A stretch of DNA of 32,000 bases from Candidatus Scalindua sp. (GTDB lineage: Bacteria > Planctomycetota > Brocadiia > Brocadiales > Scalinduaceae): positions 4,020,001 through 4,052,000 of the forward strand of contig JALDRA010000001.1 of NCBI GenBank assembly GCA_031316235.1, read 5' to 3'. This document shows positions 3,672-16,122 of this stretch, piece by piece; the first letter of the stretch is position 1, and each line of letters begins with the position of its first letter. The notes beneath the pieces are model-generated. The model was given only the letters and a program-made list of their open reading frames with translations, ran no database searches and was not told where the DNA came from. The translations under genes and the position numbers were made by a program.

Positions 3672-4271
3672 ATGCGAAAAAGATATGGAGTTAAATTTAA
3701 ATCCCAAGTAGTCCTTGAGGCAATAAAAAACGACAAGACAATTGCTGAGTTATCAAACAAATATGAGATACACAGAGATCTTGTACAAAAATGGAAGAAA
3801 ACAGTAATAGAGGGAAGTTCAGAGCTTTTTTTGACAACAAAATCAAGAGGAGGTAAGAATAACGAAAAAGTAGTAGATGAGTTGTATAAGCAGATAGGCA
3901 AACTGAAAGTAGAAAATGATTGGCTAAAAAAAGCTATGACATTTTCAATACAGCAAAAAAGAAATTTAATAGAATGGTGGTGCCGTGAATTAAGTCTAAG
4001 CACCCAATGTGAACTGTTGTCGATCTCTAAAGGAGCCCTGTATCATGAATCTTTCACGATGGATCAATTCAGCATAGCAGTTATGTCATTTATTGATCGA
4101 CAGCATATGCAAACACCATTTTCTGGTAGCCGAAAGATGGTAGTAGAGTTAAGGAAAAATGGATATATTGTAAATAGGAAAAGGGTACAATATCATGCCT
4201 TTTTTACTCTAACGCACACCACCATTACTCCTTACCACATCAGCTTAGAGCGGTTTGAAACCTTCTCCTGA
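3672..4271 (+). pseudogene. IS3-family transposase remnant: OrfA (HTH + leucine zipper) fused in frame to the first ~80 codons of OrfB; homology ends near 4193
   Basis: MRKRYGVKFKSQVVLEAIKNDKTIAELSNKYEIHRDLVQKWKK...LYKQIGKLKVENDWLKK is IS3 OrfA-like. ...LSLSTQCELLSISKGALY...PFSGSRKMVVELRKNGYIVNRKRVQ is an OrfB N-terminus. There is no DDE domain, and the tail after RKRVQ is unrelated. SD AAGGAG lies upstream of the ATG. Confidence 0.7.
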
Positions 4272-4448: not shown

Positions 4449-4586
4449 TCAAAATGTTTCAATGTATTCACAGATAGTGGTTGGTTCTGGTATCGGCAAC
4501 CCGTCTTCTTTTAATCCATCTATATGAAATGAAATTGCTTCCTTGATATTTTCTTCCGCTTCCCTGACTGTCGAACCAGTAGAAAC
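4449..4586 (-). pseudogene. hicB: HicB-family antitoxin, 3' fragment (gene split by IS insertion)
   Basis: Minus-strand reading from 4586 gives VSTGSTVREAEENIKEAISFHIDGLKEDGLPIPEPTTICEYIETF*, with the stop at 4449-4451. It joins in frame to 6805-6876 once the IS and one 8-bp TSD copy are removed. Confidence 0.7.
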
Positions 4587-4613
4587 GGGTGCATTCCCAA
4601 TTTATTGTAAAAT

Positions 4614-6032
4614 TTATTTAACAATTCGAAGACTTCTCTTAAATTTTTTATTTTTAATTCTTTCCTGGTCGTCCCTTTTGTATTTTTCGATAACTTTATC
4701 GTAAGTACCGTTATATTTCGCGCATCTGATCTTGAGTATGTTATTAGCGTTTTGGATATACCACCAAGCTCCTGATCGTTTAAGCCTTGTATGGCTAATG
4801 AATTTATTGGCGCTTTCAATAGCACCGCTGCCAATGTGATATCCTCCACGCTTGGCGGAACTGTAATCCATCTTTTCACAATGATTTGTGAGATAGGTAT
4901 AAAACTTGTCAATTTTATCTTGAATATCTTGAGTTCGGGCTTTCATCTTTCCAAGACCGCCAAGCACCTCTTCATGGTAACCATAATATATTCTTGTCAG
5001 AGTCGCCTCACACCACTGTAGAGACTCTCTTGTCTCTTTTCCGTAATGGGCATTGGCTACACCATGGACATACTCCGAGCAATGGTAATAGTCGAGAATC
5101 TCTTTTGCCGAGGGAAATATTTCTTTACATCGGTTCCAGATCCAGGGAGCACCGTCTCCTATAATTCCCAGGCGTATCTTCTCGTGGGGAATAAGCCCGG
5201 CTTCTTTGATCTTAACCAAGTATTCTGCTAATTCGTGATCTGCACAAACCTGGTGCCAGCTAATTAAATGAATAATAGTTTGACCATCGATGAGATACAG
5301 TCTAAAACCTTTAATCTCTTTGTATTCTCCTTTGCCTCTTTTCCCTTTACGGGGGTGAGGACTTGGCTCGGGACGCATCGGCCCGTGGGCTCCATCCAGG
5401 GCAAGCATCATAATGGGACGACGAAACTTATCCACTGAGAGGTTTTCTATCTGCTTATCAATCTCTTCCCTGGGCGGGCAGACATCCAAAATTCCCACTT
5501 CTTGACCAATGGCATTCGTGGTCTCATGCATATGATGTTCACTCAGCTTTACTCCGGTTATTCTCTCGTAGGTTTCGCTGGCCGTCTCATAGGCCGTTTC
5601 GCTTGACAACCAGGCTTCCACATCTTGCACATCATATTGCTTCGATGATTCAGACAATCCAAGGGCTTCGTCTAAAGGATAGTATCCTAAACGACACGCT
5701 CTGCAATAAAAATAAGGCCTGGTTAATTCAAATTGTCCGGCAAGGGTTTGGATAGTCTTGGATTGTTTTCCTTGTCTTTGCATACCCTTGCCGCATTCGG
5801 GGCAATCGCAGCTTTGCTGATTCAATAAATGTCCAAATTTCCTCTCTATGAACCCAAGAATCAGTTGTCCTAATATCTCCGCTCTCTCTTCGAAAACAGC
5901 TTTTGAGATTTCTCCTAAATCTTCCATTGAGTACTCTTCCTCAATCTTATCCAATCGGGTGTCTAAAAAACCATAAAATAAAGCTCTCCAGTTATCGGAT
6001 GACTCTATCTTTCTTTTCACCACACAAGTCAA
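4614..6032 (-). CDS. DDE transposase, ISKra4-like (UPF0236-like) family
   Basis: 472 aa. Has zinc-ribbon CDCPECG...CRAC and candidate catalytic motifs LALDGAHGP, IIGDGAPWIWN and ILDYYHCSEYV. The TTG start is preceded by the strong SD AAGGGGG five nt upstream. The stop codon lies inside IRL. An identical protein is encoded at 13888-15306. Confidence 0.8.
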   Translation of the reverse strand: MTCVVKRKIESSDNWRALFYGFLDTRLDKIEEEYSMEDLGEISKAVFEERAEILGQLILGFIERKFGHLLNQQSCDCPECGKGMQRQGKQSKTIQTLAGQFELTRPYFYCRACRLGYYPLDEALGLSESSKQYDVQDVEAWLSSETAYETASETYERITGVKLSEHHMHETTNAIGQEVGILDVCPPREEIDKQIENLSVDKFRRPIMMLALDGAHGPMRPEPSPHPRKGKRGKGEYKEIKGFRLYLIDGQTIIHLISWHQVCADHELAEYLVKIKEAGLIPHEKIRLGIIGDGAPWIWNRCKEIFPSAKEILDYYHCSEYVHGVANAHYGKETRESLQWCEATLTRIYYGYHEEVLGGLGKMKARTQDIQDKIDKFYTYLTNHCEKMDYSSAKRGGYHIGSGAIESANKFISHTRLKRSGAWWYIQNANNILKIRCAKYNGTYDKVIEKYKRDDQERIKNKKFKRSLRIVK

Positions 6033-6055
6033 AAATACCCCCTTTCAAAAGACTT

Positions 6056-6721
6056 CTATCGCTCCCTGAATACATCTATGGCGAATAGTAACGCCTGACG
6101 TTCTAATACAGGCATGGATTTAAGTTTCGCTGTCCACCTTTTGGTCTTCCTCTTTATCCGTTCCCGCTCACGAAAGTTATTGCCAAGATAACGATAGTCG
6201 TGCAGTCCTACCGGAACACTATAGTTCATCCATAACCACTCCGTTGCTACGCCATGATGACAGACGGCCTGAAAAGAATGTGTCTGCCAGCTACGCAATG
6301 ATTCTTTGTATAAGGTTGACTCGTAACCGGATATCATCACCATGCAGGGAAGAGTTTTCAAAACTTCCAAAAGTTCGATGTGCTGCGCACGGCTATAGTC
6401 ATATTTATATAGCCGTCCATACTTTTTCCTTGTCTCGCGAAGATATGGTGGGTCACAATATACCAGTTCTTTTCCTGTGAAATGATAATTATTCAGATAA
6501 TTAATTGCGTCATCATGGACCAGTTCAAAACCTATTGGATGCATATTTGTCCACATCTCAACAACTTCCGAGTCAATTTCTATCCCAAAATTACTCCTGG
6601 CAGGTCGTTTGTTCCGTATAACAGCGCCACCACCCAAATGAGTCTCTATGTAGACATCATGGGGTGGCATAAGATTGATTAACTTTTGGAATACACCTCC
6701 TTTGCCGCCTGGATAATTCAT
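6056..6721 (-). CDS. D12-class (Dam-family) N6-adenine DNA methyltransferase, IS-borne, with no restriction partner visible
   Basis: 221 aa. Has the N-terminal NYPGGKG motif, ETHLGGGAV (AdoMet motif I-like) and YCDPPY (motif IV). Starts at ATG. Lies 23 bp upstream of the transposase on the same strand, inside the IRs. Confidence 0.8.
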   Translation of the reverse strand: MNYPGGKGGVFQKLINLMPPHDVYIETHLGGGAVIRNKRPARSNFGIEIDSEVVEMWTNMHPIGFELVHDDAINYLNNYHFTGKELVYCDPPYLRETRKKYGRLYKYDYSRAQHIELLEVLKTLPCMVMISGYESTLYKESLRSWQTHSFQAVCHHGVATEWLWMNYSVPVGLHDYRYLGNNFRERERIKRKTKRWTAKLKSMPVLERQALLFAIDVFRER

Positions 6722-6727
6722 GGAAGA

Positions 6728-6756
6728 ATTATCGTTGAAAACAACGAGGAAGTCAA
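6728..6756 (-). promoter_or_regulatory. Sigma70-like promoter inside the IS right end driving the methyltransferase; predicts a leaderless mRNA
   Basis: The minus strand reads GATC-TTGACT-N17-GATAAT-TCTTCC-ATG. The -35 is at 6751-6756 and the -10 at 6728-6733. Only 6 nt separate the -10 from the ATG (6721) and there is no SD. Confidence 0.5.
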
Positions 6757-6796
6757 GATCTTTTATTATATTTTACAAAAAATCGGGAATGCTCCC

Positions 6797-6876
6797 GTAG
6801 AAACACAACCGGGTAAATCCGGAACATATGCTGAATAATTGTCCGAACCTTTTTCAATGACTATTGCATAACGCAT
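6797..6876 (-). pseudogene. hicB: HicB-family antitoxin, 5' fragment
   Basis: ATG at 6876-6874. MRYAIVIEKGSDNYSAYVPDLPGCVST is a typical HicB N-terminus. It is cut by the IS at the GTAGAAAC target duplication. Confidence 0.7.
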
Positions 6877-6879
6877 TTC

Positions 6880-7068
6880 TCATCCTTTCTTTAATTTGGC
6901 TTGTTTGTAAATGCTATTCAAAGTTCCAGGCATGAGATAATCCGATAGTTTGCCAGGAACAGTGACACGCCCTTTTTTGAGGGTATGTTTATACTGTCAG
7001 TGACTTCCATAGTACTTGAATATCACTACCGGAACTCCATAACACTTCAATATTGCAATACCAAGCAA
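6880..7068 (-). pseudogene. hicA: HicA-family mRNA-interferase toxin with an in-frame TGA (nonsense) at codon 24
   Basis: Minus-strand frame reads (TTG)LGIAILKCYGVPVVIFKYYGSH-TGA(6997-6999)-QYKHTLKKGRVTVPGKLSDYLMPGTLNSIYKQAKLKKG*. The GSH(R/H)xxKH...KGRVTVPG...PGTL pattern is HicA-like. The stop lies 5 nt before the hicB ATG. Confidence 0.55.
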
Positions 7069-9652: not shown

Positions 9653-11218
9653 TCATTGAAAACAATCCAGATCTGCATCAATTACCGCAAAATAGTCTTT
9701 TAAAGTATCAGTTTTTCTGAAAAAGCTAAACCCGACCCTGCCTGATGAAAGAGAATTATCTGAACCGTTCCAAACCATTGTGCCGTTGATATAATACGTT
9801 AAGTTAGGACCTCTTGCAACGACACGCAGTAAATTCTGACCAGACTCCCAATCAGGAATCCAACCAGAATTAACTATGCCAGATGAGGATGTCCATCCCT
9901 TAAGTGCTGTAGCAACACCGCCTACAGTCTTATATACAGAATATTCCCCTGAATTTTTATACTGAAACGAATAAAAATTAGTCGGTTTTCCATTACTCCT
10001 AATGGCTCCACTAGCCCTCACTATAAGGCGGTTAGGCTCATTATTCGTTGAATAGCGATATACCAATGCACTGAAATCAAAGTTTGAATATGTAGCGTTA
10101 TAAGTAGATGTGGCTGACTTGTTACTCACACCAGATGAAAAGTATTCGTACCACCAATCATGCGGTCCAGTACCTGCTATATCTACCTCCCAGGAACCGG
10201 AATCACGAATCCAGTCTGGCGCTTTATCATTGTATGACCAGTGTTCTTCAAAGCCTGCACATCCACCACCTCCACAAGCCGTATATTGGAAATAAGCAGA
10301 TTTCCAGGTACCTTCCGATTTATACCAAAGCCGTACGTAAACCGTGCTTCCATCTTCTGGTATTCCGCTTACAGTGTAGGATGTGAGTTCTCCTATATCT
10401 CTGTTAAGAATATCCTTCCCACCCCGTTTAGTTCCAACATGCAGCCACCACTGACTTACTGGAATTCCATTGGATGTCCAGTTAAAGGACACATCACCGC
10501 AAGTTAATCTCGAATTTTCTGCCGGACTGTATAACCAAGGGGTACTATTCCCACAATCTGGTTTGTAAGTATAGTCGTTAAATTGCCATGAACCATTACT
10601 CTCTTTATACCATAGACGTACATACAACGTTCCATTGGAAGGAATATTATTTACTATTTGACAACCACCTGTCACTGATCCGGCAAATATATCTCCATAT
10701 GGAGAATTAGCTAATGACGCCTGACTTGTCCCTACCCCCAGCCAATAGACAGTACCACTGCATTCATTCCAGCAAAATTGTTCAGTAGTATTACAAATTT
10801 GTGTGCCTGGTATCGGACTCGTAATCTCCTGTTTACATCCCTTTCCACTCTGTGTTTGATAAGTATAATCTTTTTTATACCACGTGTTGCGTTTTCGCCA
10901 CCATAATCTTACGTATAAAGTATTCCCATTTAGAGGTACCCCTGATACCGTTGCTGATGTGTTTGTTCCTACTGACTGATCGTATTTGTCTCCTCGTGTT
11001 GACTTGCTTGTTCCAGTACCGATCATAAGCCAATACGTATCCACACCTGTGCCCGAACTCCACGTAAATGTAACAGCTGTTTTCGTTAATGTTGAACCTG
11101 GTAATGGACTTGTCATCGCTGGATCTGCCGCCCAGGCTAGCTTATCTGTTGAAGATAAACAAAATACTATTAGAACGAAACCTGCAATTGCAGTAAATCT
11201 TCCTAATTTTATTCCCAT
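9653..11218 (-). CDS. Secreted protein: signal peptide, three tandem ~90-aa repeats, C-terminal ConA-like lectin/glucanase (LamG/DUF1080-like) domain
   Basis: The track ORF starts at TTG 11242. I prefer ATG 11218, which has GGAG 8 nt upstream and gives MGIKLGRFTAIAGFVLIVFCLSSTDKLAWA/ADP. The three repeats each end in LYVRLWW/YK...W...Y.Y (GNTLYVRLWWRKRNTWYKKDYTYQ, NGTLYVRLWYKESNGSWQFNDYTYK, GSTVYVRLWYKSEGTWKSAYFQYT). The C-terminus, NLLRVVARGPNLTYYINGTMVWNGSDNSLSSGRVGFSF, is jelly-roll-like. Confidence 0.75.
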   Translation of the reverse strand: MGIKLGRFTAIAGFVLIVFCLSSTDKLAWAADPAMTSPLPGSTLTKTAVTFTWSSGTGVDTYWLMIGTGTSKSTRGDKYDQSVGTNTSATVSGVPLNGNTLYVRLWWRKRNTWYKKDYTYQTQSGKGCKQEITSPIPGTQICNTTEQFCWNECSGTVYWLGVGTSQASLANSPYGDIFAGSVTGGCQIVNNIPSNGTLYVRLWYKESNGSWQFNDYTYKPDCGNSTPWLYSPAENSRLTCGDVSFNWTSNGIPVSQWWLHVGTKRGGKDILNRDIGELTSYTVSGIPEDGSTVYVRLWYKSEGTWKSAYFQYTACGGGGCAGFEEHWSYNDKAPDWIRDSGSWEVDIAGTGPHDWWYEYFSSGVSNKSATSTYNATYSNFDFSALVYRYSTNNEPNRLIVRASGAIRSNGKPTNFYSFQYKNSGEYSVYKTVGGVATALKGWTSSSGIVNSGWIPDWESGQNLLRVVARGPNLTYYINGTMVWNGSDNSLSSGRVGFSFFRKTDTLKDYFAVIDADLDCFQ

Positions 11219-11589
11219 TTTCTTCTCCTTTTTTGATTTCAATACCTATAAATATGCATCGTTACAAAGCCAACAACCTTCTTTTATACACAACCTCCCT
11301 TAATTACGTCTTCAAAACAGAGGATGGGGTTCATTATACAATGGAAACAATAGGTATAGAAGATACTATTGCTGAACTTGAGAACAGCATCATGATTGTT
11401 AAAATAGATCCAATAAAAGTTCTTTTCATATATATCCTGTTAAAAACAAAGCGGTAAAAGGGTCACCGTATTTAAGCATTAACAGACTTCCGAAAATTGT
11501 AATTCTTACTTGTGTCAAGGAAACCCAAAATTGAATTTTAAGAAGGCGATAGATCATGTAATGATTCGTGTTAATAGGCAGGTGCGGAT

Positions 11590-13788: not shown

Positions 13789-13887
13789 AAAATAACTTCC
13801 TGAATTTATTGGTAAATTGTGCTCATAAAAGAAAAATATTGTCTTTTATAGAAGCAAAACGGGTGCATTCCCAATTTATTGTAAAAT

Positions 13888-15306
13888 TTATTTAACAATT
13901 CGAAGACTTCTCTTAAATTTTTTATTTTTAATTCTTTCCTGGTCGTCCCTTTTGTATTTTTCGATAACTTTATCGTAAGTACCGTTATATTTCGCGCATC
14001 TGATCTTGAGTATGTTATTAGCGTTTTGGATATACCACCAAGCTCCTGATCGTTTAAGCCTTGTATGGCTAATGAATTTATTGGCGCTTTCAATAGCACC
14101 GCTGCCAATGTGATATCCTCCACGCTTGGCGGAACTGTAATCCATCTTTTCACAATGATTTGTGAGATAGGTATAAAACTTGTCAATTTTATCTTGAATA
14201 TCTTGAGTTCGGGCTTTCATCTTTCCAAGACCGCCAAGCACCTCTTCATGGTAACCATAATATATTCTTGTCAGAGTCGCCTCACACCACTGTAGAGACT
14301 CTCTTGTCTCTTTTCCGTAATGGGCATTGGCTACACCATGGACATACTCCGAGCAATGGTAATAGTCGAGAATCTCTTTTGCCGAGGGAAATATTTCTTT
14401 ACATCGGTTCCAGATCCAGGGAGCACCGTCTCCTATAATTCCCAGGCGTATCTTCTCGTGGGGAATAAGCCCGGCTTCTTTGATCTTAACCAAGTATTCT
14501 GCTAATTCGTGATCTGCACAAACCTGGTGCCAGCTAATTAAATGAATAATAGTTTGACCATCGATGAGATACAGTCTAAAACCTTTAATCTCTTTGTATT
14601 CTCCCTTGCCTCTTTTCCCTTTACGGGGGTGAGGACTTGGCTCGGGACGCATCGGCCCGTGGGCTCCATCCAGGGCAAGCATCATAATGGGACGACGAAA
14701 CTTATCCACTGAGAGGTTTTCTATCTGCTTATCAATCTCTTCCCTGGGCGGGCAGACATCCAAAATTCCCACTTCTTGACCAATGGCATTCGTGGTCTCA
14801 TGCATATGATGTTCACTCAGCTTTACTCCGGTTATTCTCTCGTAGGTTTCGCTGGCCGTCTCATAGGCCGTTTCGCTTGACAACCAGGCTTCCACATCTT
14901 GCACATCATATTGCTTCGATGATTCAGACAATCCAAGGGCTTCGTCTAAAGGATAGTATCCTAAACGACACGCTCTGCAATAAAAATAAGGCCTGGTTAA
15001 TTCAAATTGTCCGGCAAGGGTTTGGATAGTCTTGGATTGTTTTCCTTGTCTTTGCATACCCTTGCCGCATTCGGGGCAATCGCAGCTTTGCTGATTCAAT
15101 AAATGTCCAAATTTCCTCTCTATGAACCCAAGAATCAGTTGTCCTAATATCTCCGCTCTCTCTTCGAAAACAGCTTTTGAGATTTCTCCTAAATCTTCCA
15201 TTGAGTACTCTTCCTCAATCTTATCCAATCGGGTGTCTAAAAAACCATAAAATAAAGCTCTCCAGTTATCGGATGACTCTATCTTTCTTTTCACCACACA
15301 AGTCAA
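13888..15306 (-). CDS. DDE transposase, ISKra4-like (identical protein to 4614-6032)
   Basis: The track shows an identical 472-aa translation. Confidence 0.8.
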   Translation of the reverse strand: MTCVVKRKIESSDNWRALFYGFLDTRLDKIEEEYSMEDLGEISKAVFEERAEILGQLILGFIERKFGHLLNQQSCDCPECGKGMQRQGKQSKTIQTLAGQFELTRPYFYCRACRLGYYPLDEALGLSESSKQYDVQDVEAWLSSETAYETASETYERITGVKLSEHHMHETTNAIGQEVGILDVCPPREEIDKQIENLSVDKFRRPIMMLALDGAHGPMRPEPSPHPRKGKRGKGEYKEIKGFRLYLIDGQTIIHLISWHQVCADHELAEYLVKIKEAGLIPHEKIRLGIIGDGAPWIWNRCKEIFPSAKEILDYYHCSEYVHGVANAHYGKETRESLQWCEATLTRIYYGYHEEVLGGLGKMKARTQDIQDKIDKFYTYLTNHCEKMDYSSAKRGGYHIGSGAIESANKFISHTRLKRSGAWWYIQNANNILKIRCAKYNGTYDKVIEKYKRDDQERIKNKKFKRSLRIVK

Positions 15307-15329
15307 AAATACCCCCTTTCAAAAGACTT

Positions 15330-15995
15330 CTATCGCTCCCTGAATACATCTATGGCGAATAGTAACGCCTGACGTTCTAATACAGGCATGGATTTAAGTT
15401 TCGCTGTCCACCTTTTGGTCTTCCTCTTTATCCGTTCCCGCTCACGAAAGTTATTGCCAAGATAACGATAGTCGTGCAGTCCTACCGGAACACTATAGTT
15501 CATCCATAACCACTCCGTTGCTACGCCATGATGACAGACGGCCTGAAAAGAATGTGTCTGCCAGCTACGCAATGATTCTTTGTATAAGGTTGACTCGTAA
15601 CCGGATATCATCACCATGCAGGGAAGAGTTTTCAAAACTTCCAAAAGTTCGATGTGCTGCGCACGGCTATAGTCATATTTATATAGCCGTCCATACTTTT
15701 TCCTTGTCTCGCGAAGATATGGTGGGTCACAATATACCAGTTCTTTTCCTGTGAAATGATAATTATTCAGATAATTAATTGCGTCATCATGGACCAGTTC
15801 AAAACCTATTGGATGCATATTTGTCCACATCTCAACAACTTCCGAGTCAATTTCTATCCCAAAATTACTCCTGGCAGGTCGTTTGTTCCGTATAACAGCG
15901 CCACCACCCAAATGAGTCTCTATGTAGACATCATGGGGTGGCATAAGATTGATTAACTTTTGGAATACACCTCCTTTGCCGCCTGGATAATTCAT
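15330..15995 (-). CDS. D12-class (Dam-family) N6-adenine DNA methyltransferase, IS-borne (identical to 6056-6721)
   Basis: Identical 221-aa translation with the YPGGKG and DPPY motifs. Confidence 0.8.
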   Translation of the reverse strand: MNYPGGKGGVFQKLINLMPPHDVYIETHLGGGAVIRNKRPARSNFGIEIDSEVVEMWTNMHPIGFELVHDDAINYLNNYHFTGKELVYCDPPYLRETRKKYGRLYKYDYSRAQHIELLEVLKTLPCMVMISGYESTLYKESLRSWQTHSFQAVCHHGVATEWLWMNYSVPVGLHDYRYLGNNFRERERIKRKTKRWTAKLKSMPVLERQALLFAIDVFRER

Positions 15996-16001
15996 GGAAG
16001 A

Positions 16002-16030
16002 ATTATCGTTGAAAACAACGAGGAAGTCAA
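16002..16030 (-). promoter_or_regulatory. IS-internal promoter for the methyltransferase (copy 2)
   Basis: Same TTGACT-N17-GATAAT-N6-ATG arrangement as at 6728-6756. Confidence 0.5.
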
Positions 16031-16122
16031 GATCTTTTATTATATTTTACAAAAAATCGGGAATGCTCCCAGCAAAACAGCAGATGATTGAACAATCTGA
16101 ACGTGAGTACACCGTAAATAGT

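Follow-up and report, generated by a model that had tools for sequence, protein, structure and literature searches.

An Upf31-like gene ahead of the transposase in an ISKra4-family insertion sequence of Candidatus Scalindua: a candidate portable autoregulatory cassette

Introduction

What does a gene that resembles a DNA adenine methylase do directly in front of a transposase? The question is raised by a 32,000-nt stretch of the Candidatus Scalindua sp. genome (GenBank assembly GCA_031316235.1, contig JALDRA010000001.1, positions 4,020,001 to 4,052,000; here called the window, in whose coordinates positions are given), in which an ISKra4-family insertion sequence (IS) at 4587–6796 carries two genes on the minus strand, one for a 221-residue Dam-like protein and, behind it, one for the transposase. 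An earlier interpretation, the sequence-only reading, took the first gene to be a Dam-like orphan methyltransferase and a one-off cargo, with which the element might time its own transposition through methylation.

The present analysis identifies the product of this gene as a relative of Upf31, a protein of IncP-1β plasmids, and we give about even chances to the reading that the Upf31-like gene is an autoregulated cassette which puts the transposase under negative feedback. The comparisons point to a portable control module, not to a chance passenger, and the general idea of an element-borne regulator of transposition would survive in this form, as operon autorepression.

Anatomy of the element

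What the element is and how it is built is almost certain. Copy 1 measures 2,210 bp between its outer inverted repeat (IR) ends (4587–6796) and is bounded by 27-bp IRs that match at 24 of 27 positions, GGGTGCATTCCCAATTTATTGTAAAAT at the transposase-distal end (4587–4613, plus strand) and GGGAGCATTCCCGATTTTTTGTAAAAT at the promoter-proximal end (6770–6796, minus strand), the likeness running on to 37 nt at 84%. A perfect 8-bp target duplication, GTAGAAAC, lies directly outside the IRs at 4579–4586 and 6797–6804. Apart from the 37-nt extension, these features, when re-checked in the sequence, agree with the sequence-only reading, as do the placement of both genes inside the IRs on the minus strand, 23 nt apart and with the methyltransferase-like gene first, the YPGGKG and DPPY motifs of its product, and the absence of an endonuclease gene from the element.

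A degenerate form of the IR pattern matches the window four times, against 0.00 matches expected from 100 shuffles, and two of the four flank a second copy of the element, overlooked in the sequence-only reading, at 13861–16070 (minus strand; 13853–16078 with its duplications), with the transposase gene at 13888–15306 and the Upf31-like gene at 15330–15995. Copy 2 differs from copy 1 by one mismatch in 2,210 nt and lies between perfect 8-bp duplications of another sequence, AGCAAAAC (13853–13860 and 16071–16078). Two near-identical copies with different duplications show that both genes moved recently and together, as one unit, and with high confidence the element is a complete, recently transposed ISKra4-family IS of the Candidatus Scalindua genome. 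IRs and target duplications of fixed length, as in ISKra4-family ISs, are found at two independent insertions, with 8 bp in each, and in both copies a non-transposase gene is enclosed by the IRs and duplicated with the element, as in transporter ISs. Both duplications end in AAAC beside the transposase-distal IR (4583–4586/6801–6804 and 13857–13860/16075–16078), which may reflect a target preference or, with only two sites, could be chance.

The transposase gene (4614–6032, minus strand) encodes 472 residues from a TTG at 6032, or 469 residues from the GTG at 6023 that NCBI gives as the start. Its product, a DDE transposase (PF06782), reaches 241.5 bits on the NCBIfam ISKra4 model NF033572 (cutoff 205; model positions 15–421 of 422), which bears out its earlier description as ISKra4-like, and it is 100% identical to the NCBI entry 'ISKra4 family transposase [Candidatus Scalindua sp.]'; the public proteins identical to the two proteins of the element carry this organism name. 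The intergenic spacer (6033–6055, minus strand) comprises 23 nt and contains an AAGGGGG Shine-Dalgarno sequence 5 nt before the TTG. A scan for promoters and terminators between the two genes predicted none, so in all likelihood the transposase gene follows the first one within a single operon. Beyond the 221- and 472-residue genes, the minus strand within the element contains no other substantial open reading frame (ORF).

A Dam-fold core lacking the recognition domain of Dam

The first gene (6056–6721, minus strand, start codon at 6721) is assigned to the Upf31 family by its match to PF02086, a profile match to DpnM and Dam, the AlphaFold2 model with its Foldseek matches and the similarity to upf31 of plasmid pBP136. 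The 221-residue product carries the motifs YPGGKG, HLGGG (residues 28–32) and DPPY (residues 90–93), and the conserved lysine of its N-terminal GGK probably corresponds to the residue with which EcoDam contacts the G of GATC. It passes the D12-class methyltransferase model PF02086, the check on which the sequence-only reading had staked its assignment, with 35.8 bits against a cutoff of 22, although only residues 83–148 (model positions 175–245 of 253) are matched. With the models of Dam itself it stays below the cutoffs, at 42.4 bits against 114.85 for NCBIfam TIGR00571 and 15.9 bits against 441 for PRK10904, and PADLOC returns generic Type II/orphan methyltransferase matches only, with no assignment to a defence system.

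A single-sequence search of the PDB with the 221-residue protein gives nothing at E≤1, and Dam and DpnM are reached only by profile and fold searches. The profile built from 48 homologues aligns in two blocks with DpnM and with the Dam of E. coli, residues 2–69 of the query pairing with DpnM 16–83 and residues 83–158 with DpnM 187–266, and in this alignment the target-recognition domain of Dam and DpnM, about 100 residues at roughly 84–186, has no counterpart. The AlphaFold2 model, which is moderate (mean predicted local distance difference test score 69.8, four segments below 50) and is relied on for no more than the fold of the core and the helices at the C-terminus, contains a Rossmann-type core whose best PDB matches in Foldseek are Dam, DpnM, Mcbe1 and T4 Dam (E 1.7e-07 to 1e-05, TM about 0.53), followed by two long helices, 183–202 and 205–220, which are not found in Dam. 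The glycines of the GxG motif (G30 and G32) and the DPPY motif are invariant in a set of 48 homologues and in 73 of 73 homologues, down to 40% identity.

Sequence and model together thus describe a protein that has a Dam-fold catalytic core and is not a Dam. It shares with Dam and DpnM the fold of the catalytic core, the N-terminal GGK, an FxGxG-type motif I and DPPY as motif IV, and the core looks competent to bind S-adenosylmethionine (SAM). Unlike them, it lacks the recognition domain, has about 60 additional C-terminal residues forming a helical hairpin, which (at about 183–220) is with high confidence of the dimerisation type, and has in Upf31 a tested homologue with no GATC activity. The Dam-like function proposed earlier is therefore not supported, in view of the missing domain, the low score on the Dam model and the lack of detectable methylation by Upf31.

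The Upf31-type family is large, with 1,050 clusters at 50% identity and E≤1e-30. Many of its members are longer (280–340 residues; P0242–P0390) and match the query in two blocks, which are separated by an insert of 60–100 residues at query positions of about 62–70. This insert sits where a recognition domain would be expected, and the short form of ISs and plasmids may have been derived from real methyltransferases by deletion of that domain. The non-specific adenine methylases Hia5/Hin1523 were weighed as a precedent for methylation with no recognition domain and rejected, as they comprise 281 residues, have a recognition region that is divergent but present, and carry DPPY near residue 194.

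Relationship to Upf31 of IncP-1β plasmids

The closest studied relative of the 221-residue protein is Upf31 of the IncP-1β plasmid pBP136, with 55.3% identity over query residues 1–212 (96% of the length), in an alignment that carries through the segment RYLG-NFRERERIKRK and the terminal helices. Searched with tblastn, plasmids yield 179 matching records, of which 129 are conjugative, the best match being the IncP-1β backbone gene upf31.0 (pBP136, R751 relatives). Relatives at 42–47% identity are also present in P2-like phages of Salmonella and Klebsiella.

Upf31 is a predicted homologue of Dam (Elg et al., bioRxiv 10.1101/2024.02.05.579024; Mol Biol Evol 2025, PMC11997246). It does not methylate GATC in a dam− host, and in ER2796, an E. 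coli strain free of methylases, it leaves no modification detectable by SMRT (single-molecule real-time) sequencing (PMC11997246; 10.1101/2024.02.05.579024). It does repress its own promoter, from 4.76 to 0.09 units of XylE, an effect that depends on its C-terminal ~50 residues, which are modelled as a dimerisation domain, and an inverted CAGCATCG repeat is suggested as the operator (PMC11997246; 10.1101/2024.02.05.579024); the autorepression data are those of a pBP136/R751 hybrid Upf31. The protein is reported to act through KorB, and its gene is regarded by the authors as nearly confined to IncP-1β plasmids, IS-borne relatives being unmentioned (PMC11997246).

The protein of the Scalindua element resembles Upf31 of pBP136 in its motifs, DPPY included, in its C-terminal helical domain, in its length (221 against 225 residues) and in an inverted repeat in the promoter with a common TCG...CGA core. 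The settings of the two genes differ, since upf31 belongs as a single gene to the backbone of a conjugative plasmid and the gene after it, on the other strand, is for a resolvase and not for a transposase, its promoter lies 62 nt from the ATG (35 nt in the IS) and yields an mRNA with a leader, and its product is reported to work through KorB, which is absent from an IS.

Promoter and operator

The operon promoter and operator are placed at 6722–6756 (minus strand) by the best sigma-70-type match of the region and by a geometry that is common to the family. This match, TTGACT-17-GATAAT, agrees with the consensus at 10 of 12 positions and consists of a −35 hexamer TTGACT at 6756–6751, which is a sigma-70-type consensus match, and a −10 hexamer GATAAT at 6733–6728, with 6 nt more to the ATG at 6721, which implies that the mRNA of the operon would be leaderless. 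A 24-nt operator-like segment, TTCCTCGTTGttttCAACGATAAT, extends from 6751 to 6728 and includes the palindrome TCGTTG-N4-CAACGA (6747–6732). Read from 6756 to 6719, the minus strand gives TTGAC TTCCTCGTTG tttt CAACGATAAT TCTTCC ATG. As in the Upf31 family, the gene has its own promoter with an inverted-repeat operator between −35 and −10, and the TCG...CGA core of the IS operator is found again in the upf31 promoter of pBP136 (AGCATCGCCA tttc TGACGAGACT). Within the promoter-proximal IR there is also a sequence resembling a terminator, the hairpin CGGGA-GCAT-TCCCG with a T-run behind it (6797–6784, minus strand); it faces into the element and may block transcription from outside from reading into the operon.

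The upstream regions of the family were compared by aligning the 75 nt before the start codon of all fetched loci. Generic searches for the best inverted repeat upstream were swamped by chance repeats in AT-rich DNA, and a position-anchored analysis was used instead. One geometry (TTGAC, 24 nt, 6 nt, ATG) recurs in IS-borne, chromosomal and plasmid members, with a consensus for the 24-mer of ATCATCGTCA-N4-TGACGATGAT, or ending in GATAAT, so that the right arm ends in the −10 hexamer; in some relatives the identical promoter is located 20–27 nt farther upstream and is combined with a Shine-Dalgarno sequence. Among 28 non-redundant promoters with this spacing, a mean of 6.75 of the 10 possible pairs is formed, against 2.56 in random 24-mers from the same loci, and at least 7 of 10 pairs are present in 54% of the operators and in 0.55% of the random 24-mers. 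The ten non-IS promoters reach a mean of 8.5 of 10 pairs, compared with 6.95±0.37 in a permuted-partner control. When metagenomic loci are added, the 49 unique promoters of the IS clade have C at spacer position 6 in 49 of 49 cases and GAT at positions 19–21 in 48–49 of 49. The promoter hexamers do not account for the invariant spacer positions.

One cassette before many transposases

Two surveys were made of the gene's neighbourhood. The first covered 80 loci from reference genomes and metagenome-assembled genomes (MAGs), in 29 of which a transposase gene lies directly downstream on the same strand, the whole query clade included except for decayed copies. The expectation that the methyltransferase and the transposase always travel together inside the same IRs holds for both copies in the window; as a fixed pairing with ISKra4 it was dropped, since in these 80 loci an ISKra4 transposase is found downstream only of methylase homologues with at least 78% identity. 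The other loci of the query clade (59–73% identity) have an IS66, an ISL3 (one locus) or a DDE_Tnp_1-type (IS4/ISAs1-like) transposase on the same strand, at distances of −4 to about 180 nt. In a simple neighbour-joining tree, the methylase-like genes of the query clade form one clade whatever the transposase family, and a second IS66-linked clade is multi-copy in a Longimicrobiales MAG and in an alphaproteobacterial MAG. The IS66-type unit of the Longimicrobiales MAG measures 2,277 bp and is present in 5 copies, with GTAACTACTCACCC as IRs, five different 8-bp duplications and both genes inside. IRs around both genes are found in ISKra4-, ISL3-, IS66- and IS4-like examples, and between elements of different IS families the DNA is conserved only from about −54 to +655 relative to the ATG, a stretch made up of the promoter/operator and the ORF.

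The second survey, an independent scan of metagenomes, gave 80 loci with homologues at 64–95% identity. Seven of these end too early to be assessed and two are without a transposase. A recognisable transposase gene lies directly downstream in 63 (IS66-like in 33, ISL3 in 16, ISKra4 in 8 and IS4-like in 6), and Pfam models add eight more (two IS66, three DDE_Tnp_1, one DUF4277/IS1634-like and two DDE_3/IS630), so that in 71 of the 73 assessable loci the next gene downstream, on the same strand, is that of a DDE transposase. What had looked like a one-off cargo is a habitual upstream partner of at least six DDE families, namely IS66, ISL3, ISKra4, IS4-like, IS1634-like and IS630.

Upstream of ISKra4 transposases with 59–63% identity to that of the window, no Dam-like gene is found. 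In another ISKra4 relative (L097, 485–1969), whose transposase is 70% identical, only residues ~7–29 of the Dam-like gene are retained, fused in frame to the transposase; it is a natural deletion derivative that would keep the promoter and lose the regulator. The absence of the cassette from the lower-identity relatives and its near-complete deletion in L097 imply that its gain took place inside a single ISKra4 sub-lineage and that it can be lost again.

Several further settings of the gene were observed. Solo copies with promoter and operator, without a transposase, lie between housekeeping genes in two other anammox genomes, those of Brocadiaceae S225 (L007, 4935–5672) and Anammoxibacter (L017, 5001–5669), and may either have been domesticated or be what is left of decayed elements. 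Elements on contigs of archaeal MAGs (L008, L011, L015, L019 and L035; Methanophagaceae, Thermoplasmata, Heimdallarchaeota and Altiarchaeota) have the bacterial-type TTGACA/GATAAT promoter, and either these short repeat contigs are mis-binned or the element crosses domains; the assignment of any 2–3 kb repeat contig to a MAG may be a binning error. Homologues at 46–53% identity with near-perfect operators (L029–L032, L036, L038, L039, L048–L050, L052 and L064; in Aggregatibacter, Yersinia, Pseudomonas, Colwellia and others) are followed by a gene for an Ogg-HhH glycosylase-like protein of 264–287 residues, to which L036 (5001–9285), the only one of these loci that was scanned, adds genes for a QueC-like protein, a fusion of PfkB and nucleoside 2-deoxyribosyltransferase, and an HD phosphohydrolase. 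By gene content, these loci look like an undescribed DNA-modification or defence cluster.

Proposed mode of action and competing explanations

If the Upf31-like gene is an autoregulatory cassette, transcription would start from or beside the ATG of the first gene, at the sole good promoter of the element, which is situated about 40 nt inside the IR and may be shielded from outside transcription by the hairpin. The product of the first gene, as a dimer, would bind the palindromic operator (6728–6751), which takes up the spacer together with the −10 hexamer, and so switch off its own synthesis. The transposase, co-transcribed across the 23-nt gap and translated from its own Shine-Dalgarno sequence and a weak TTG start, would be shut off with it. 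Entry into a naive cell would then be followed by a burst of transposase and later by low expression independent of copy number. Control in cis, through a promoter that travels with the gene, requires no contact with a particular transposase, and this would be why the segment from about −54 to +655 has been recombined before the transposases of at least six unrelated DDE families.

Several observations weigh against this autorepressor interpretation. Its experimental basis is one plasmid homologue at 55% identity, studied in E. coli, and for the Scalindua IS itself we infer co-transcription, dimerisation and operator binding alike. The sigma-70 scan gives a consensus match in a planctomycete host, a group in which promoters are little studied. 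The operators of the IS clade are degenerate (a mean of 5.61 of 10 pairs against 5.30±0.11 with permuted partners, or about 2.8 standard deviations), and the conservation of their right arm is partly just that of the −10 hexamer. In addition, DPPY, GxG and the acidic residue of motif II are invariant or nearly so across the 73 homologues; such a catalytic site is hard to reconcile with a protein that does no more than bind DNA as a repressor, and it speaks for an enzymatic or SAM-dependent step having been kept. An active orphan N6-adenine methyltransferase with a specificity other than GATC, a cargo whose methylation of host and vector DNA keeps the carriers of the IS safe from restriction following horizontal transfer or changes the expression of host genes, would account for these invariant catalytic and SAM-binding motifs, for the fold and profile matches to Dam and DpnM and to the Type II methyltransferase models of PADLOC, and for longer family members with an insert at the recognition-domain position. 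The conjugative IncP-1 plasmids and P2-like phages in which the family occurs are usual homes of anti-restriction methylases. We nevertheless regard this explanation as possible but rather doubtful: the IS form is without the recognition domain, Upf31 gives neither a SMRT signal in methylase-free E. coli nor protection of GATC, and a gain in anti-restriction explains neither the near-obligate place before a transposase nor the conserved operator. A protein combining both activities, a repressor-methyltransferase for its own operator only, would reconcile the invariant catalytic site with autorepression and with the negative genome-wide SMRT result, since a palindrome of ~20 bp would occur too seldom in the chromosome of E. 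coli for SMRT to yield a motif. Its dimer would flip, and perhaps methylate, the adenine of the invariant GAT, which in the right arm is A(−11) of the −10 hexamer; GAT does not vary at operator positions 19–21 and the mirror-image T-C at positions 5–6 hardly does (T in 41 and C in 49 of 49), and the GGK lysine, as the probable counterpart of the Dam residue at the G of GATC, would fit as well. This dual function is unlikely in our judgement, as direct evidence of methylation is absent throughout the family, the conservation of the right-arm GAT is owed in part to the −10 function, and the reading is inferential as a whole. Equally improbable is its corollary, in which occupancy together with the methylation state after replication would set promoter activity, a self-contained timing switch of the Dam/IS10 type. 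The broader formulation, that an Upf31-like base-flipping methyltransferase reduced to its own operator forms a host-independent epigenetic or feedback switch which at least six unrelated DDE families have captured repeatedly in bacteria and perhaps archaea, likewise has a low probability.

The two remaining explanations receive still less weight. Timing of the IS ends and of the transposase promoter by a Dam-type GATC methylase, in the manner of host Dam for IS10, IS50 and IS903, was the proposal of the sequence-only reading and has in its favour a GATC that abuts the −35 hexamer at 6757–6760. This GATC is lost from the nearest relatives (L003 and L004), neither IR of the element contains one, and the GATCs counted in eight elements have no consistent placement in IRs or promoters. 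Together with the missing recognition domain, the score below the Dam subfamily cutoff and the failure of Upf31 to methylate GATC, this leaves the proposal with hardly any chance of being correct. That the gene is a neutral hitch-hiker without a role in the biology of the element, in the sense of transporter ISs, fits with the recognised existence of ISs whose passenger genes include methyltransferases, with the gene-less ISKra4 relatives and with the L097 derivative, from which most of the gene is deleted. A fixed position and orientation before the transposase at 71 of 73 loci and in six families, a protein identity of 64–95% kept across unrelated elements and a conserved promoter and operator make neutrality very unlikely.

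Comparison with known transposition control systems

Transporter ISs (tIS) with passenger genes are a recognised category, an example being IS220, whose passenger is a methyltransferase (Siguier et al., cited in PMC11891212). The Scalindua element is similar to them in having a non-transposase gene inside the IRs that moves with the IS, and differs in that one cassette with 64–95% identity serves six transposase families, always upstream and with an operator of its own, which is atypical of sporadic passengers.

Limiters of transposase expression or activity that are encoded by the IS itself include InsA of IS1, OrfA of the IS3 family and the Tn5 inhibitor. The proposed role of the Upf31-like protein corresponds to theirs, with a small upstream product limiting the transposase independently of copy number. 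Those limiters are helix-turn-helix (HTH) proteins or truncated transposases, each belonging to one IS family and often binding the IR, whereas here the fold is that of a methyltransferase, the putative operator is in the promoter and not in the IR, and one family can exchange the module with another. Host Dam methylation, which controls IS10, IS50 and IS903, offers a second parallel, as in both cases a protein of the adenine-methylase type is tied to a site overlapping the −10 hexamer of the transposase promoter; in the Scalindua element this protein is self-encoded and independent of GATC, and any methylating activity of it is putative.

Genomic surroundings

Copy 1 has split a hicB-like antitoxin gene on the minus strand, the 3′ part of which lies at 4449–4586 and the 5′ part at 6876–6797. 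Removal of the copy and one duplication in silico restores an ORF of 69 residues that matches PF15919 (HicB_lk_antitox) with 60.2 bits. Just upstream of it, a hicA-like toxin frame (6880–7065, minus strand) has an in-frame TGA at 6997–6999, and the toxin may have been dead already when the antitoxin was hit, or may have died because of it. About 300 bp from copy 1, at 3672–4271, an IS3-family OrfA-like ORF (HTH_Tnp_1, HTH_21) without a following integrase-core ORF is probably the remnant of another IS. Copy 2 has a nuoN-like gene on one side and a DUF3786 gene on the other. Elsewhere in the window, a 529-residue ORF with a TTG start (9653–11242, minus strand) has no Pfam match at E≤0.001.

Implications

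What appears to be new in these observations is a large Upf31-type family with a major clade that is almost exclusively the first gene of ISs of at least six transposase families; Upf31 itself and the tIS category were already known. Searches of the literature that could be searched gave no description of an IS association of Upf31-type genes and nothing relevant on ISKra4 elements with a methyltransferase or other passenger, although single elements may already be listed in ISfinder or REBASE. Accessory genes common to unrelated transposon families are rare and, once understood, expose general rules of transposons, as did TnpB, which is common to IS200/605 and IS607.

The enigmatic upf31 of IncP-1β plasmids, for which a cost in E. 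coli was recently shown, is placed in a wider family, and the name 'DNA adenine methylase', borne by thousands of database entries of the Upf31 type, may misdescribe them. If the protein is also an enzyme, it would be a methyltransferase of a new kind, the target of which is minimal or self-directed. If the gene is a portable autorepressor, it would constitute a new general solution to the control of transposase dosage and to the induction of transposition after horizontal transfer.

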